Source of the DNA: Bacteroidia bacterium
GTDB taxonomy: Bacteria; Bacteroidota; Bacteroidia; J057; JADKCL01
Direction of reading: 5' to 3'
DNA length: 64,000 nucleotides
Assembly: GCA_020635905.1 (NCBI GenBank)
Contig: JACJYV010000006.1
Location: 24,060-88,059, forward strand
The notes beneath the pieces are model-generated. The model saw nothing but the letters and a program-made list of their open reading frames with translations, ran no database searches and was not told where the DNA came from. How positions within the stretch are numbered: position 1 is the stretch's first letter; each line of letters begins with the position of its first letter. Below are positions 13,778 to 25,058 of this stretch, in pieces. The translations under genes were made by a program, and so were the position numbers.

Positions 13778-16700
13778 ATGGAACAAATCATTCAAAACAA
13801 AGAGAGAGAAAAGAGTAGCAATAACGAACTGACACAAGCCAAAGGAGAAGCTGGAGGCATGGAAAAAACCATGGCCCCCCCGGTTTTTGACCTTGTTTCT
13901 GCCCCCGTACAACAAAAAGGTGAAGAGGAAGAGGAATCGCTCCAGATGAAGGGCGAGGAGGAGGAAGAATCGCTCCAGATGAAGGGTGAGGAAGAGGAAG
14001 AATCGCTCCAAATGAAGGGTGAGGAAGAGGAGGAATCTCTTCAGATGAAGGGTGAGGAGGAAGAGGAATCTCTACAGATGAAAGGCGAGGAGGAAGAAGA
14101 ATCCCTGCAAATGAAGTCGGCGGAGGAAGAGGAATCCGTGCAGAAAAAAGAAGCGCCTGCGCCTGAAGTGCCCGTGGTGGCCGCCGTGCAAAAGAAAGGC
14201 GAAGAAGAGGAAGAATCCCTCCAGATGAAATCCTCAGAGGAAGAGGAATCTGTCCAGAAAAAAGATGCTGGCTCGCTCACTCCTCCCGAATTTTCCGTGG
14301 AGGAAGGCGGCATGCCTCTCCAGCGCAAATCCATTGAAGACGAAGAATCCGTACAGAAAAAAGAAGCGTTTGGCAGCAATCTCGGAGCTGCCCAGCTCAA
14401 AGGCACGGAGGAAGAAGAATCTGTTCAGAAAAAAGAAAGTGGAAACGGCGAGTCCTTCTCTCCTGCCGCTGAAAGCGGCGGCTCAGGCGGACTCGGGCCC
14501 GTACAGCATAAAATGGAAAGCGCCTTCAACAGCGATTTTTCCAATGTAAATGTGCACGAAAACAGCCAGAAAGCCAGCGACATTGGCGCTTTGGCCTATA
14601 CCCAGGGCAATGACGTGCATTTTGCCCCCGGTCAGTTCAAGCCCGATACCCAGGGCGGTCAGGAACTCATCGGCCACGAACTCACCCACGTGGTGCAGCA
14701 ACGCGAAAACCGCGTCACTCCCACCACCCAGACCAAGTCGGACATGCCCGTCAACGACGACAAAGGCCTCGAAGGCGAAGCCGATCACATGGGCGCCAAG
14801 GCCGCCCGTGGTGAAAATACTGGCATGAATGGCGGCGCCAGCAATGCCGCGGGTCCCGAAGTGCAGGCCAAAGTGGCCTCCGTGCCCACCTTCCTGCCCG
14901 TGGCCGATCCCATTCAGCAAAAATCTGACGGCGAGGAAGAGGAAACCAGCCAGAAAAAGGAAGCTCCTTTTTCTAAAGAAGTGGACATGGGCGATGCCAC
15001 CCCTCCCGCGGATGCCAATTCCAATCCCGGCCAGTTCAAAATGGCGCCCTTCCAGCTCAAAGCCCAGGCGCCCGTGCAAAAAGCAGCTGGCGATCCCCCT
15101 GCTACGGAATCCGCTGCTCCCGCCACCGTGGTGCAGCTCGCCAACGGATTCAATCCGCCGGCAGATGTGGCTGGCTACCTCAACGAAAATCACAAAAAAT
15201 GGGTCACCATCAATGCAGCCATGGGCTCCATTGCCAGCGGTCCCCTCAAAGTGCGACAGAAAACCAAACCTTCTGAGGATGGTTCCACCCCGGGCACCTA
15301 CGAAATCAAATCCGGTCAGGGACTCGACCTCAAAATGGGAATATCCTTCCTCAATCCCCTGGCCGCCAATGGCATTTTGCCCGTCATTGCCCTCAACGCC
15401 TCAGATGTAAATAATATCACAGGCTTCCTTTCCTTTAGGGTGGGCGAAACTGTTATGCCTGATCCCCGCGCCCTCATCACCCAGATCAACCAGAATCTGG
15501 AAATGTTTGGCCTGATGGGCGTGACCCCGATCACCGTGCCCGACTACCAAAACGAAGTGGTGGGTGGAATTCTCACCCTCATGGCTCCCACCCTCAACAC
15601 CCAGGTGGGCGGTTTCATGAATGCCACGGGTAATTTTGGGCTGGTGGATGGCAATTTCGTCTTCCACATCGAGGCCGACGTCACCATCGACGGTCTGGCT
15701 CACGGTCTTTTGATGATCGAGCGCAACGAAGAAGGCCATTTTAATGGTGAAGCCGACATTGATGTGACCGTGCAAAACCTCTCGGGTAATGTGAAAGTGG
15801 TCTATGCCAATGGTTCTGTGACCGGACGAGGCACCGCCAATATCCAGTCTGAAAAATTCAGCGGTTCGCTGACCATGATTTACGACGAGGAAGCCATTGC
15901 CAATGCGGCCGTCCACGAAGGACTCGGCATCGAGACCATGAGCGGCGGCGAAGGCGAAGTGGCAGCGGATGCGCCTTCGGGCGGCAAGAAAGTGATTGCC
16001 GGCTTTGGTTCGGTCACCGTGCAACTGACCGACTGGCTCACCGCCACGGCCAATGTGGGCGTGGACAGCCAGGGCCACGTTACCATCCACGGCCAGTTGG
16101 GCTTCCCCGACCAGGTCGAACTGATGGAGCAGCAGGACAAGAAAAAAGACCTTTTCAACGTCGAAATCAAAGCTGGCTATGGCATTCCGCTGGTGGGACA
16201 GGTATTCCTGTTTGCCTCGGTGGGAATGTTTGTCAAAGGCGGATTTGGTCCGCTGGTGCTCAAAGACATCATCATGGAGGGTACCTACTCCACCGATCCC
16301 AACGTATTGCAAAACTTCAAGATCGGCGGCACGCTGGCCATTGGGGCCTATGCAGCCCTCGGTCTGCAGGTTCGCGCCGGGGTGGGACTCACCCTGCTCG
16401 GCCACGATATCAAGGCGGGCATTGATGTGGACGCCATGGCGGGCATTCAGGCCTATGCCGAGGCCACCCCGACCTTCGAATACTTTGAAAAAGATTCTGA
16501 TGGCCAGAAAGTGGGCGAAGCCCACCTCAAAGGCCATTTTGAAGCGGCCGCCCGCCTTTTCCTCGAACTGGCCGGCGCCTTCTTCGTGGAAGTGGATGCT
16601 CCCTGGTGGAGCCCTTGTCCCGACAAAACCTGGGAATGGCCCTTTGGCAGCGTGACCTACCCCATTGGCGACAGCCTGGGTGTGGGCGCGGATGTGGACT

Positions 16701-18367
16701 GGCTGGTGGGTTCGCCCGATGTGCCTGAAGTGGCTTTCTCACCCGTCGAGTTCGATCCCGACAAATTCGTCTCTGACATGACCAAGGAGCCCGATGACTT
16801 TGGTGCGGACGGCCCTGGGGGCGATCAGGAGCAGCAGGGTGAATGGACCGACGCAGGTGGCGGCGAAAATCAGCTGGAAGGCGATCCGCAGGCTCCCACC
16901 GCCGAAGGCGGGGGGCAGCCCCAGGAAGATCTTTCCAAGCTTTCATCCGAAGAAAAATACATGCGGGCCCTGGGCGAGATCGGTGAAATTGCCGAAGGAT
17001 GTAACACCAAGCCCGTGCCCGACGCAGTGCTGCGCACCCGTTGCAACGCCATCAAATCCAAATATGGCATCAACCAGGTGACCCTGCGCAACCGCCAGAA
17101 AGATTCCATCGAAATTTACGTTCAGCACGGATCGCAAAACAACCGCGACAACGTCATCAAGTGCAAAGTCATTTCCGAGCACGAGCGTGACCTGCAGTTC
17201 CAGAAAGCCGTGGACGATCTGAACAAAATGCTGGAAGTATTCGGCGCACCCGAAACCGGAGCCGTCACCCGCAGCCAGATCACCACCGCCGCCAAAGAAG
17301 TGGACATTGCCCACGAAGTGATCGTCGATACCGAGGTCCGCGACCAGGGCCAGGATTGGGTGGTCTTCGGCGACATTGAAGAAACGAAGCGGAAAATGAC
17401 GCAGAAGCCGAAGGCTGAGTTGTTGGGAGTTGAAGATGGGACTTCTGAGACTTCACCAAGCTCGGAGGAAAGCTATTTAATCAACGAAAACGAAGGAACA
17501 AATAATGGGGAATTAACTGTTGAAACTACAATGTCTCAGGTCGTCTCATTCTACATGAATGGTGCAGATCATGAAATTACCATTACTGATCAAATGGGTG
17601 AATTGGAGACATTAATGGCCTCCAACATTCAAAAAACAATTACTACCAAAATTGCAAATCAAAAACGATCTACGCAACATTTGATCAATGCATCCACCGA
17701 TCCCGCTGATATCGCCCACTATCAGAGTTTACTTACTATGCTTACAAACGCAGAAAGTCAGTATAATACTGAACGCTCTCAGGCAAAATCCAATTATGAT
17801 GCGAAAATTGCTGCCGGCCTTGATAGAAATGATCAATTAAGATCACTAAGAAATAAATACCTCAAAGCCGCACAAAGAATTGGGGAAAAATTAGCGGAAA
17901 TTGGGGATTTATTTGGAATCAAAGACCTTGAAACAATGGAAGCCCATGTGGCAATTGAAATGTTCAATACAGCAAAAAGAGAACTGGAAAAATCCCTCAA
18001 CAAATCAGTTGAAGGAGGTGATGGGCATAATAATACAGCTGCAGCTGCCGAGCAACTAGGATGGGTTCATTCAAGTGGAGCAACTCATGATACCCGTCTT
18101 GGAATTGAGTTGGTGCGCCTGAACGAGGCTAAATCAAAAATTGATGTTCTCAATGCTAAATTTGGAACCCTGATTGCTGATCATATTTATGATGAGATTA
18201 GAGACCTGATTGGTGATTGTAACCTAGCCTTGGGAAGTCCCCACCAGTATCTGGTATACAACAGATTCAGAGACAAAAGAAACCTTTACATGCTATTCAG
18301 AGCAAATCCTGCGACCGGTTTCTCCGGGTGGGATACACTTTCGGAAGCAGATTTCAGAAGACTTTAA
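13778..18367 (+). CDS. DUF4157 (eCIS core domain) polymorphic toxin/effector with variable C-terminal tip
   Basis: DUF4157 at ~14490-14705 ([15 protein letters not shown]...[12 protein letters not shown]...[10 protein letters not shown]); QxK/VQ linkers; no signal peptide; abrupt shift to AT-rich codons at ~17400; small AT-rich gene 9 bp downstream. Confidence 0.85.
13910..14140 (+). repeat. Intragenic 33-bp tandem repeat, 7 units, encoding Q(M/Q)K(G/S)(E/A)EEEES(L/V)
   Basis: Read directly in DNA and protein; units differ mostly at synonymous positions; further dispersed units follow to ~14430 and ~14950. Confidence 0.95.
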
Positions 18368-18376
18368 GATTATTTC

Positions 18377-24343: not shown

Positions 24344-24344
24344 A

Positions 24345-25058
24345 ATGGAACTTAACCCTGATTACAATCTGGAAAGAAGTATTGCTTACATTTTGGACAA
24401 AAGCTGGGGATTATTTGATAAGATTAACCCCATTGACCAAATAGATTTGAAAGATGATTCGATTCCTCAAATTTTTAAGGAATTACCCGGAAAGTCCAAA
24501 ATGGAATCTTTGGAACTAATTTGGAAGGATGCATTTTTGTACTTACCTGATTTTCGAAAACTCCTTGAATCATCCCTGATTGGACTCTTTGTTGGAAATG
24601 GCATCATAGGACCTGTTTTGGTTTATTTTCTTGAAAGGTGGGATCAAAGGAGCGGGGCGGATGGTATAATGATGGCTTGTCCTCCTACAAACGAACAAGA
24701 TATCACGGCATGGGAAGCAAAAAATGGCACCCTCCCTGATTCAATCAAAAAGATTTGGAAGGCACATGGATTTCTTCTATTGAGAGGTGGCGTTCCTTTT
24801 ACGTCCTTATTGCCCAGCAATCCATCCATTATATCTCATCCCGTAAATTTTGGAGAAAAACATAATCTAAACGATCCCAAGCAAAAACTTGAATGCCTAG
24901 GAATTGCCGGGATTTCTGCCGACTATCCATTCTGCCTCACCAGACAGATAGGAGAAAAAATTTGGACGGATAATTTAGTGGATGTATTTAGATTTGGAAA
25001 TACCTGGGAAGAGGGCGGTCATTCCAGTCTGGATAGTTTATTTGTTGGATATGAATAA
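24345..25058 (+). CDS. SMI1/KNR4-like immunity protein
   Basis: EQDITAWEAKNGTLPDSIKKIW resembles the SMI1/KNR4 'I..lE..lg..LP' motif; tightly coupled to the upstream ORF. Confidence 0.55.
   Translation: MELNPDYNLERSIAYILDKSWGLFDKINPIDQIDLKDDSIPQIFKELPGKSKMESLELIWKDAFLYLPDFRKLLESSLIGLFVGNGIIGPVLVYFLERWDQRSGADGIMMACPPTNEQDITAWEAKNGTLPDSIKKIWKAHGFLLLRGGVPFTSLLPSNPSIISHPVNFGEKHNLNDPKQKLECLGIAGISADYPFCLTRQIGEKIWTDNLVDVFRFGNTWEEGGHSSLDSLFVGYE

Follow-up and report, generated by a model that had tools for sequence, protein, structure and literature searches.

Gene content of the locus

Within the 64,000-nucleotide stretch of DNA analysed here (the window), a DUF4157/eCIS_core gene is followed on the same strand by AT-rich genes and ORFs, an insertion sequence and a pair of direct repeats. 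The features are given below with the basis of each assignment in parentheses.

13778-18367, +, predicted DUF4157/eCIS_core cargo toxin gene (ORF; Pfam PF13699; paralogue alignment)
13778-14497, +, acidic hydrophilic N-terminal leader, aa 1-240 (composition, motif count, TRF)
14498-14710, +, DUF4157/eCIS_core zincin-like domain (Pfam; HELTH, of the form HExxH, starting at 14675)
14711-17368, +, conserved GC-rich body, comprising a linker and a Gly-rich region (comparison with the paralogue and genus g5)
17369-17419, +, junction motif, aa 1198-1214 (body-family alignment)
17420-18367, +, AT-rich polymorphic C-terminal tip (phmmer, alignments, AF2)
18377-19201, +, cognate partner of the tip, putative immunity protein, 274 aa (profile search of the genome ORFs)
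19288-19467, +, 3' remnant (59 codons, start-less) of a displaced tip (comparison with contig L035)
19478-19978, +, intact partner of the displaced tip, putative orphan immunity gene, 166 aa (homologue P0032)
20054-22743, +, intact IS66-family element (genome copies, Pfam, ends read from the sequence)
22812-23225, +, AT-rich ORF, 137 aa (database and genome searches)
23256-23315, +, 61-bp direct repeat, copy A (88.5% identical to copy B)
23318-23851, +, shorter orphan paralogue of the gene at 18377, 177 aa (HMM, hhalign, BLASTP)
23867-24343, +, ORF, 158 aa (homology searches)
24345-25058, +, ORF, 237 aa (homology searches)
25267-25327, +, 61-bp direct repeat, copy B (carB starts at 25353, 25 bp downstream)

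A conserved toxin body with variable tips

The toxin gene encodes 1529 aa from the ATG at 13778, where the alignment with its paralogue begins, or 1537 aa from an in-frame TTG at 13754. Residues 249-319 match Pfam eCIS_core (PF13699; E = 1.7e-25). The leader (aa 1-240) has a pI of 4.2, with Asp and Glu making up 28% of its residues. The motif [LV]Q[QMKRH]K occurs 15 times, with six occurrences spaced 11 residues apart, and a 33-bp tandem repeat of 6.6 copies lies at 13919-14136. The AlgoCIS cargos Cgo1 and Cgo2 are built as NTD-DUF4157-CTD and require a disordered NTD for loading (bioRxiv 10.64898/2026.05.27.728243); by analogy, the leader may be an eCIS loading sequence. The conserved body of about 900 aa includes a hydrophobic segment (aa 799-828) with a Gly-rich region, and showed a weak OMP beta-barrel-like match. 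GC content is 0.55-0.61 in the body, drops to 0.38-0.42 from about 17400, and remains low through the downstream ORFs. A DUF4157 protein of about 1530 aa with a GC-rich body and an AT-rich tip, as the preliminary description had it, is thus present.

A paralogue on another contig (C24_472657_478242) shares about 94% nucleotide and 97% amino acid identity with the leader and body of the toxin. The DNA identity stops at base 17418, coinciding with the GC drop, and no similarity was seen beyond it. The paralogue has a different tip, bears a second DUF4157 at its C-terminus, and has no obvious same-strand immunity gene. In three body homologues from the related genus g5 (41-54% amino acid identity to the body), the similarity breaks off near this position (query aa 1202-1230); in the third (G011:C1011) it continues to aa 1312, owing to a tip that is distantly related to that of the window toxin. 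The motif GD[IV]xEExRxMxxKPxA is kept and followed by divergence in four of the five body-family proteins (the window toxin, the C24 paralogue and both G011 copies), while in the G010 protein it is degenerate and similarity stops just upstream of it. The proposal of a polymorphic toxin, in which the body is conserved and the tips vary among relatives, is borne out by the sharp junction and by the differing tips of the paralogue and the three homologues.

The tip consists of a Ser/Glu-rich linker of about 37 aa and a domain of about 255 aa. A phmmer search of 1.8 billion proteins found 29 cluster representatives of the tip family, all with the domain at the C-terminus, in proteins of 80-1608 aa from at least four phyla. 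Four of ten tip-carrier proteins scanned in Pfam had eCIS_core N-termini with unrelated bodies. Two motifs characterize the domain, M-x-G-E/A-x-H and G-D-G-H-x-N-[ST]-A-x-x-A-E, and D1415, G1416, H1417, N1419, E1425, H1437 and D1480 are invariant in a 16-sequence alignment. The AF2 model (pLDDT 84) had no fold match in the PDB or BFVD, and the sequence had no match in Pfam or NCBIfam. The tip belongs to a rare, apparently undescribed family that is absent from Pfam, and this AT-rich putative toxin domain was probably acquired horizontally. The invariant D-G-H-x-N...E...H...D residues suggest an enzyme; this is a guess from conserved polar residues, since neither fold nor sequence searches turned up a relative with a known function.

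The partner gene and a displaced tip

The partner gene (18377-19201) starts 9 bp past the toxin stop. We constructed an HMM only from ORFs lying directly downstream of tip homologues in four distant genomes, namely those of a Microcoleus (cyanobacterium), two Bacteroidota and a proteobacterial MAG. When it was run against the 33,941 ORFs of the genome, 18377-19201 was the best match (E = 5e-14) and 23294-23851 the sole other match (E = 1e-3). The tip and the partner are thus linked in four other genomes of three phyla, which is consistent with the earlier assignment of an immunity gene at 18377. The protein appears to belong to an undescribed family.

A start-less tip at 19288 with an immunity gene at 19478 had also been proposed, and both found counterparts on an independent contig (L035). 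The remnant begins 87 bp past the stop of the 18377 gene, and over its final 46 residues it matches the C-terminal end of a toxin-like gene on L035 with 54% identity (E = 7e-17). This gene lies directly upstream of P0032, the single homologue of 19478-19978, which is 38% identical and likewise 166 aa long. Judged by this paired similarity, 19288-19467 is a genuine toxin remnant. The ORF scan placed the start of the partner at ATG 19346, a codon that lies within the remnant and is probably not the true start.

IS66 element and distal ORFs

The IS66 element contains a tnpA-like ORF, TnpB_IS66, DDE_Tnp_IS66 and a 135-aa passenger ORF (22303-22710). Its terminal repeats (GTAAGCACCCGGC...) are flanked by an 8-bp target duplication (ATGCCAAT) at 20046-20053 and 22744-22751, and four other copies in the genome are 98.6-99.96% identical. 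It was inserted in intergenic space, splits the toxin/immunity array and is not part of the toxin system. The preliminary description omitted it; of the orphan array described there, at least one displaced tip with its partner and one extra immunity paralogue stand.

Same-strand ORFs were found at 18377, 19346/19478, 22812, 23294/23318, 23867 and 24345, whereas about 0.04 ORFs of at least 137 codons are expected by chance per 2.6 kb at the local base composition (an estimate). The paralogous immunity gene suspected near 23324 was recovered as a distant, shorter paralogue of 18377, covering roughly the N-terminal half of the family profile. Its E value against the immunity HMM improved to 3.6e-5 once 18377 was included; hhalign gave P = 1.8e-5 over 147 columns, and BLASTP gave E = 2e-6. 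ORF 22812, possibly another orphan immunity gene, has no paralogue in the genome and matched nothing in Pfam, NCBIfam or 78 genomes from the order. ORF 23867, for which the proposed role of toxin tip found no support, had no homologue, and its N-terminal half carries leader-like SQMK and LIQRR motifs. The reading of 24345 as SMI1/KNR4 was not upheld: the ORF had no homologues in 5.8e9 proteins and no Pfam or NCBIfam match even at E = 10, hhalign gave only a 28-residue motif match, and the AF2 model was unusable (pLDDT 37).

The block 22812-25058 may be unrelated to the toxin: it could be a patch of horizontally acquired AT-rich ORFs, or of pseudogenes in decay, that lies by chance between the toxin genes and carB. 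Three of its ORFs are without homologues or domain matches, and the final 2 kb are flanked by the two copies of the 61-bp repeat, which copies the carB upstream region and suggests a separate insertion. Moreover, 23318-23851 and 23867 share a frame with a single stop codon between them and may be one broken gene. However, 23318-23851 is a significant immunity-family paralogue, and it lies on the same strand as its neighbours, is similarly AT-rich and is packed tightly with them (gaps of 15 bp and then 1 bp). We regard an unrelated origin of the block as possible but rather unlikely.

Role of the partner family

The 18377-19201 family could also act as a chaperone, adaptor or activator that folds, stabilises or loads the tip. 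Linkage of tip and partner is compatible with either role, helper genes associated with DUF4157 have been proposed (PMC11297309), and immunity genes are missing for many eCIS toxins (PMC8213781; PMC3482391). However, partner-family genes occur without a toxin, as in the orphan at 23318 and a tandem second copy on L032, and the partner of the displaced tip is intact though its toxin was destroyed. Such copies are typical of protective immunity genes and would be pointless for a chaperone, so that a helper role is improbable. Most likely, 18377-19201 encodes the immunity protein of the tip, which would shield the producer and its kin.

eCIS clusters and delivery

The window is free of eCIS core genes and contig C26 had no core-marker match, but the genome contains four eCIS clusters (C27:380-388k, C1:1305-1311k, C24:439-466k and C24:356-361k). 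All four have tube and Pvc16_N terminator genes, and three also have a sheath match; no T6SS sheath (TssC) was found in the genome. There are 29 DUF4157 matches in the genome. Of 27 DUF4157 genes, 23 are separated from any eCIS core gene by over 40 kb or sit on a contig that has none, while published EATs are mostly within ten genes of an eCIS operon (PMC11297309). The toxin may be delivered by one of the four particles, most likely that of the C24 operon about 7 kb from the paralogue, because this adjoining paralogue has the same leader and body with a different tip.

It is highly improbable that the protein is instead a stand-alone toxin, exported and entering targets through its own Gly-rich/hydrophobic body or another eCIS-independent route: the lack of eCIS, T6SS or secretion genes beside it in the window, the remoteness of most DUF4157 genes from eCIS cores, and the hydrophobic segment and barrel-like match of the body would fit such a route, but the eCIS clusters, the position of the paralogue, the strong eCIS specificity of DUF4157 (odds ratio 2614; PMC8213781), the lack of a T9SS sorting domain and the absence of a signal peptide evident by eye argue against it. 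The earlier statement that no eCIS is nearby thus holds for the window and fails for the genome, and the upstream neighbour gene (10687-13653) has a T9SS sorting domain, contrary to the statement on T9SS.

Comparison with known systems

The locus probably comprises an eCIS polymorphic cargo toxin ("EAT"), the matching immunity gene and what is left of earlier tip exchanges. The toxin consists of a predicted loading leader, DUF4157/eCIS_core, the body, the junction GDxxEExRxMxxKPxA and a putative toxin tip that was probably acquired. Points that speak against this reading are the remoteness from any eCIS core gene, the absence of an obvious same-strand immunity gene at the C24 paralogue, the lack of known relatives of the tip, and three downstream ORFs (22812, 23867 and 24345) without a toxin or immunity assignment. 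The present tip and immunity unit would have recombined in and truncated the previous tip, leaving the stump and its immunity gene, with the IS66 insertion between units as a later event. The locus is a good new example of the known eCIS/PVC-type polymorphic toxins rather than the undescribed stand-alone system first suggested, as an N-terminal DUF4157 with a long linker and a C-terminal toxin is already published (PMC3482391; PMC8213781; PMC11297309; bioRxiv 10.64898/2026.05.27.728243).

In Rhs, CDI (CdiA-CT/CdiI) and MafB loci, as here, the conserved body closes with a short junction motif (VENN and PxxxxDPxGL are comparable), the AT-rich tip is an acquisition that brings its own immunity gene, and the stump of a former tip follows downstream together with intact immunity. 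The delivery machine differs, however, and this locus has a single proven stump. Furthermore, no stretch of DNA or protein is common to the downstream units and the toxin body or junction, and there is thus no evident substrate for renewed swapping. Because of this, and because the sole proven tip is a 59-codon stump, the array consists of relics and is not the working exchange library that had been supposed.

The toxin also resembles Cgo1/Cgo2 of Algoriphagus machipongonensis, likewise from Bacteroidota (PMC8894135; bioRxiv 10.64898/2026.05.27.728243). There too a disordered leader, DUF4157 and a variable C-terminal effector are joined, and cargo pairs have a common leader and different C-terminal domains. 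In contrast, the window toxin gene is far from any eCIS operon, a defined junction motif closes its body of about 900 aa, and its tip is accompanied downstream by a cognate partner and by the remnant of the tip that it displaced.

PVC-metallopeptidase polymorphic toxins (Zhang et al. 2012, PMC3482391) and EATs (Geller 2021, PMC8213781; Danov 2024, PMC11297309) have the same N-terminal DUF4157, long linker and diverse C-terminal toxin. The second DUF4157 of the C24 paralogue is a described variant, and immunity genes are present at some such loci. Many published members lack immunity genes and lie within about ten genes of the operon, whereas the window locus combines a conserved partner with relic cassettes and is remote from any operon.

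Compared by description alone, the tip family resembles Ntox2 (Zhang et al.) in the motif M-x-G-E-[SG]-H, Microscilla members, DUF4157 N-termini and a predicted fold in which a helical bundle comes after a three-stranded sheet. Ntox2 was published from one species and without an immunity protein, whereas members of the tip family occur in four or more phyla and are accompanied by a partner gene.

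Composition and genomic context of the locus

The locus is a polymorphic eCIS cargo toxin gene accompanied by a cognate, putative immunity gene and by relic cassettes. Polymorphic eCIS cargo toxins are a known kind of system (PMC8213781, PMC11297309, bioRxiv 10.64898/2026.05.27.728243, PMC3482391). New here are the tip and partner families with their linkage across phyla, the junction motif, an eCIS cargo gene that bears a clear footprint of tip displacement, and a cargo toxin gene that is remote from any eCIS operon. The genome is 8.48 Mb in size and 98% complete, and the window corresponds to positions 24060-88059 of contig C26. 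All the ORFs named in the preliminary description were recovered, on the plus strand.

Features of the locus (window positions)
10687-13653: upstream neighbour, M43-like peptidase with a T9SS Por_Secre_tail sorting domain (Pfam)
13778-18367, plus strand: toxin gene (leader, DUF4157, body, junction, AT-rich C-terminal tip)
18377-19201, plus strand: partner gene, putatively encoding the immunity protein
19288-19467, plus strand: start-less frame (stump)
19478-19978, plus strand: partner gene of the stump
20054-22743: intact IS66 (TnpB_IS66 and DDE_Tnp_IS66; terminal repeats GTAAGCACCCGGC...)
22812 onwards, plus strand: 137-aa ORF
23318-23851, plus strand: shorter partner-family copy
23867-24343, plus strand: 158-aa ORF
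24345-25058, plus strand: 237-aa ORF
25353-28166: downstream neighbour, carB (Pfam)

GC content was 0.55-0.61 over the toxin body and 0.38-0.42 from about 17400, remaining low to 19978 and again over 22800-25200; the interval 20000-22700 is GC-rich because of the IS66 copy. A scan for regulatory signals yielded nothing usable, as sigma-70 promoter-like sites did not exceed background and terminator-like ones exceeded it only modestly. The window sequence is also present in activated-sludge metagenome runs; the organism, probably one of the Bacteroidota, is known from sludge metagenomes only. Single-contig loose ends were seen at 13694 and 23221 when 13000-25600 was mapped, with an identical consensus in three independent sludge metagenomes (X3, X5 and X9), and were absent when the mapping was repeated with 22700-23400 alone. 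These ends could reflect other junctions in related strains, or be artefactual. In other sludge metagenomes the organism appears only as short, identical contigs of low depth, which are therefore uninformative on tip polymorphism.

Module order of the toxin protein

The toxin ORF (13754-18367) is a frame of 1537 aa. A paralogue on contig C24 becomes similar at the ATG at 13778, which is therefore the probable start and gives 1529 aa. PF13699 (eCIS_core, formerly DUF4157) was found at aa 249-319 of the 1537-aa frame with 89.4 bits (E 1.7e-25; gathering cut-off 22 bits; Pfam), and the HExxH motif reads HELTH at aa 300. The preceding leader (aa 1-240) is acidic and hydrophilic (pI 4.2, GRAVY -1.24, 28% D+E) and rich in repeats, carrying 15 [LV]Q[QMKRH]K motifs, six of which are spaced by 11 residues; its DNA includes a tandem repeat of 33 bp in 6.6 copies. 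The body of about 900 aa after DUF4157 contains a Gly-rich region and, at aa 799-828, a single segment that is clearly hydrophobic. Cargo proteins Cgo1 and Cgo2 of AlgoCIS consist of a disordered N-terminal domain required for loading, a DUF4157 that may be missing, and a C-terminal domain that varies (bioRxiv 10.64898/2026.05.27.728243). Likewise, eCIS-associated toxins (EATs) have an N-terminal DUF4157, a linker sometimes exceeding 1000 aa and a C-terminal toxin (PMC8213781, PMC11297309). The module order of the window toxin, with a putative loading leader, agrees with both plans.

A constant body with alternative tips

The C24 paralogue (472657-478242, minus strand, 1861 aa) showed about 94% nucleotide identity to 13778-17418 of the window (97% in protein) and was unrelated to the window toxin past base 17418. 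Homologues of the body were found in another genus of the same family, in genomes G011 (contig C1232, 48% identity; contig C1011, 54%) and G010 (contig C101, 41%). Similarity to G011:C1232 and G010:C101 stops near the same point as in the C24 paralogue. Similarity to G011:C1011 extends to query aa 1312 because its tip is a divergent relative of the window tip (E 2.5e-16). In an alignment of the five sequences, a junction motif, GD[IV]xEExRxMxxKPxA, lies at aa 1198-1214 of the window toxin (nt 17369-17419); it is kept in four of the five, with divergence after it, and is degenerate in G010. The gene family has a constant N-terminal part, alternative tips among paralogue and homologues and a sharp junction between the two, as polymorphic toxins do.

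The alternative tips differ in kind. The tip of the C24 paralogue contains a second DUF4157; Zhang et al. 2012 (PMC3482391) had already reported the variant with a second DUF4157 at the C-terminus. No obvious same-strand immunity gene follows this paralogue (C24:469479-478242); instead, there are two convergent genes of 618 and 426 aa, which are very AT-rich (GC 0.34-0.37) and by eye look like leucine-rich repeat proteins. An HNH-like HH...GGH...N motif was seen by eye in the G010 tip, in which a Pfam search returned no domain match.

In G010 (C101:34000-50000), the body homologue is found downstream of carB, at a distance of about 1.6 kb, in contrast to the window toxin, which is upstream of carB; the carB neighbourhood is common to both and the side differs. 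In G011:C1232 (7306-9524), the body homologue precedes two small AT-rich ORFs (159 and 144 aa; GC 0.41), after which comes a 429-aa ORF that has an SMI1_KNR4 domain at its N-terminus (E 3.2e-7). This multi-gene downstream array is analogous to that of the window.

The tip family

A phmmer search of 1.84 billion cluster representatives with the tip (aa 1214-1529) gave 29 matches, all C-terminal, in proteins of 80-1608 aa. Four of the ten tip carriers scanned in Pfam had eCIS_core N-termini with unrelated bodies, so that the tip family sits on unrelated N-terminal architectures, again a trait of polymorphic toxins. An alignment of 16 sequences revealed an invariant D-G-H-x-N-x-A-x-x-A-E, an equally invariant later H, D and Y-L pair, and an M-x-G-E-x-H motif whose H is nearly invariant. 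The AlphaFold2 model built from this alignment (pLDDT 84) has a sheet of three strands and, after it, a long helical bundle; with a threshold of E 1e-3, Foldseek matched the model to nothing in PDB or BFVD. Neither the tip nor the small ORFs matched Pfam or NCBIfam at E values up to 10. Weak PDB profile matches to EnvZ DHp (E ~1e-4, profile positions 13-74) overlap both the predicted beta-strands and the first helices, where M-x-G-E-x-H resembles the HisKA H-box, and were judged spurious. The Ntox2 family was described as linked to a PVC-metallopeptidase, present in Microscilla, and alpha+beta with a GEsH motif and a helical C-terminus (Zhang et al. 2012, PMC3482391). The window tip family agrees with Ntox2 in a comparison of descriptions only, and this undescribed family is possibly the Ntox2 of 2012.

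A cognate partner gene travels with the tip

Scanning one genome per species for the tip motif uncovered four loci, in Microcoleus, a Bacteroidota MAG, Microscilla and a proteobacterial MAG. In all four, an ORF of 286-310 aa lies directly after the tip, and these ORFs are mutually related. In the Bacteroidota MAG (1228-2990 of its locus), two partner-family paralogues (286 and 301 aa) stand in tandem after the tip homologue, an arrangement that fits an accumulation of immunity genes. An HMM built solely from the five downstream ORFs (two of them the tandem copies of one locus) was searched against 33,941 ORFs of the genome. The top match was 18377-19201 (E 5e-14), the second was 23294-23851 (E 1e-3; 3.6e-5 with 18377 added to the profile), and no further match was found among all 33,941 ORFs. 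Since the ORFs directly after the tips are related in four distant genomes and their profile retrieves 18377-19201, tip and partner travel together across phyla, namely across cyanobacteria, Bacteroidota and proteobacteria. A PDB profile search with the partner family found nothing. We read the product of 18377-19201 as a putative immunity protein; a candidate immunity gene that lies directly downstream and appears to travel with its tip is a further feature of polymorphic toxins. As expected of such a pair, the tip is predicted to be toxic and to be neutralised by its cognate partner. Whether eCISs take part in conflict between bacteria is unsettled because many eCIS toxins come without immunity genes, and the window tip and partner offer a clean, testable pair for this question.

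Footprint of a displaced tip

The stump (19288-19467) begins 87 bp past the stop codon of the partner gene. The next gene begins at the ATG at 19478 and encodes 166 aa; its sole homologue among 5.8 billion proteins (38% identity) has this length too. On its own contig, this homologue is preceded by a gene that ends in ...NGNILPAPKRWIYQFSEPSINEDLYNWLIKKGVTEVRTGK, and the start-less frame of the window ends in ...NGNPVSPPDRWIYQFTLPEIDQRLRDWLIGKGVDEVRTGI. These two ends share 54% identity over 46 residues (E 7e-17). The current unit of tip and partner would have recombined into an older toxin gene, leaving its last 59 codons, and a stump 87 bp after the partner stop is the footprint that would be expected from such a replacement. 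A stump beside its intact partner provides direct sequence evidence of serial tip replacement in eCIS cargo genes, as in Rhs and CDI toxins.

Relic cassettes downstream

The IS66 copy has the attributes of its family, namely transposase genes, terminal inverted repeats, an 8-bp target duplication (ATGCCAAT) and multiple copies, four further ones being present in the genome at 98.6-99.96% identity. A 135-aa ORF inside it (22303-22710) overlaps the end of the transposase gene and occurs in every full genomic copy; it had no Pfam domain and is suggested to be a conserved passenger or a fourth IS gene.

Beyond the IS element, 23318-23851 is a shorter copy of the partner family, aligning to profile positions 10-160 of 297 (hhalign P 1.8e-5). 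The frame of 23867-24343 is the same as that of 23318-23851, with a single stop between them (23849-23851), and it was collinear with the C-terminal part of the immunity profile at a level that was not significant (P 0.038). Both ORFs may derive from a single broken gene. The 23867 ORF may be an orphan tip, a small leader-bearing effector or the tail of a broken immunity gene. The ORFs at 22812, 23867 and 24345 gave self-matches alone in homologue searches and contained no domains, and the orphan units downstream of the toxin had no paralogues elsewhere in the genome. Of the orphan cassettes proposed in the preliminary description, one stump with its partner and one orphan immunity paralogue were substantiated, and the three other ORFs were left without assignment.

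The earlier reading of 24345-25058 as SMI1/KNR4 was not borne out, with no PF09346/SUKH match even at E 10. Alignment to the genome's own SUKH proteins by hhalign covered 28 residues with a probability of 3.7%, the first-helix motif only, and the assignment was rejected as unsupported. The AF2 model, with a pLDDT of 37, was not usable, and a seed search with the SUKH gene of a relative had no match in the genome. On contig C29 (233780-237397), a 578-aa DUF4157 protein is followed on the same strand, about 1.4 kb downstream, by an SMI1_KNR4 gene (E 1.9e-20); this genome thus does pair DUF4157 toxins with classical SUKH immunity. Within the window, a 200-aa ORF at 51687-52289 has a clear SMI1_KNR4 domain (E 3.4e-13) and is apparently unlinked to the toxin locus.

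A 61-bp direct repeat (23256-23315 and 25267-25327, 88.5% identical) duplicates the upstream region of carB. One copy stops 2 bp short of 23318-23851 and the other 25 bp short of carB. The copies bracket a block of about 2 kb (23318-25058), which suggests a separate addition of this block. A comparison of 18368-25352 with the junction, the body end and the whole toxin by blastn-short and tblastn gave nothing better than E 0.1. Body and junction have no sequence in common with anything downstream, so that a substrate on which tips could be exchanged again is not visible. Rhs and CDI orphan cassettes keep pre-tip homology that allows recombination, whereas the downstream units of the window do not, and with no such tract in the orphan units a swappable tip library is not supported.

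eCIS clusters and delivery

The genome contains 29 PF13699 matches, which amount to about 27 DUF4157 ORFs, and four eCIS clusters, located on contigs C27, C1 and C24 (two). Pvc16_N/DUF4255 (PF14065) and a gp19-like tube (PF06841) were found in all four, and a sheath match (PF04984) in three, with none seen at C24:356-361k. TssC was not found in the genome, and contig C26 had no match to eCIS core markers. It had been proposed that the locus is a stand-alone, undescribed system; the four eCIS clusters, near one of which lies the C24 paralogue with the same leader, argue otherwise. The corresponding operon spans about 438.9-465.8 kb of C24, and the paralogue begins 6.8 kb beyond it. Of known EATs, 88% are within about 10 genes of an eCIS operon (PMC11297309); the paralogue, five genes past its operon, shares this proximity and the window toxin lacks it. 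Cargo leaders are system-specific (bioRxiv 10.64898/2026.05.27.728243). As the leaders of window toxin and paralogue are 96-98% identical, the window toxin is most likely loaded into the same eCIS particle as the C24 paralogue. It seems to us very improbable that the DUF4157 body is a self-sufficient scaffold, with the remote DUF4157 genes being eCIS-independent polymorphic toxins that undergo Rhs-like serial tip replacement and have immunity genes protecting kin.

Only four of the 27 DUF4157 genes are less than 20 kb from an eCIS core gene, so the majority of putative cargo genes are not near an operon. In such an eCIS-rich genome, with cargo-like genes mostly far from operons, effector predictors based on operon proximity would miss them.
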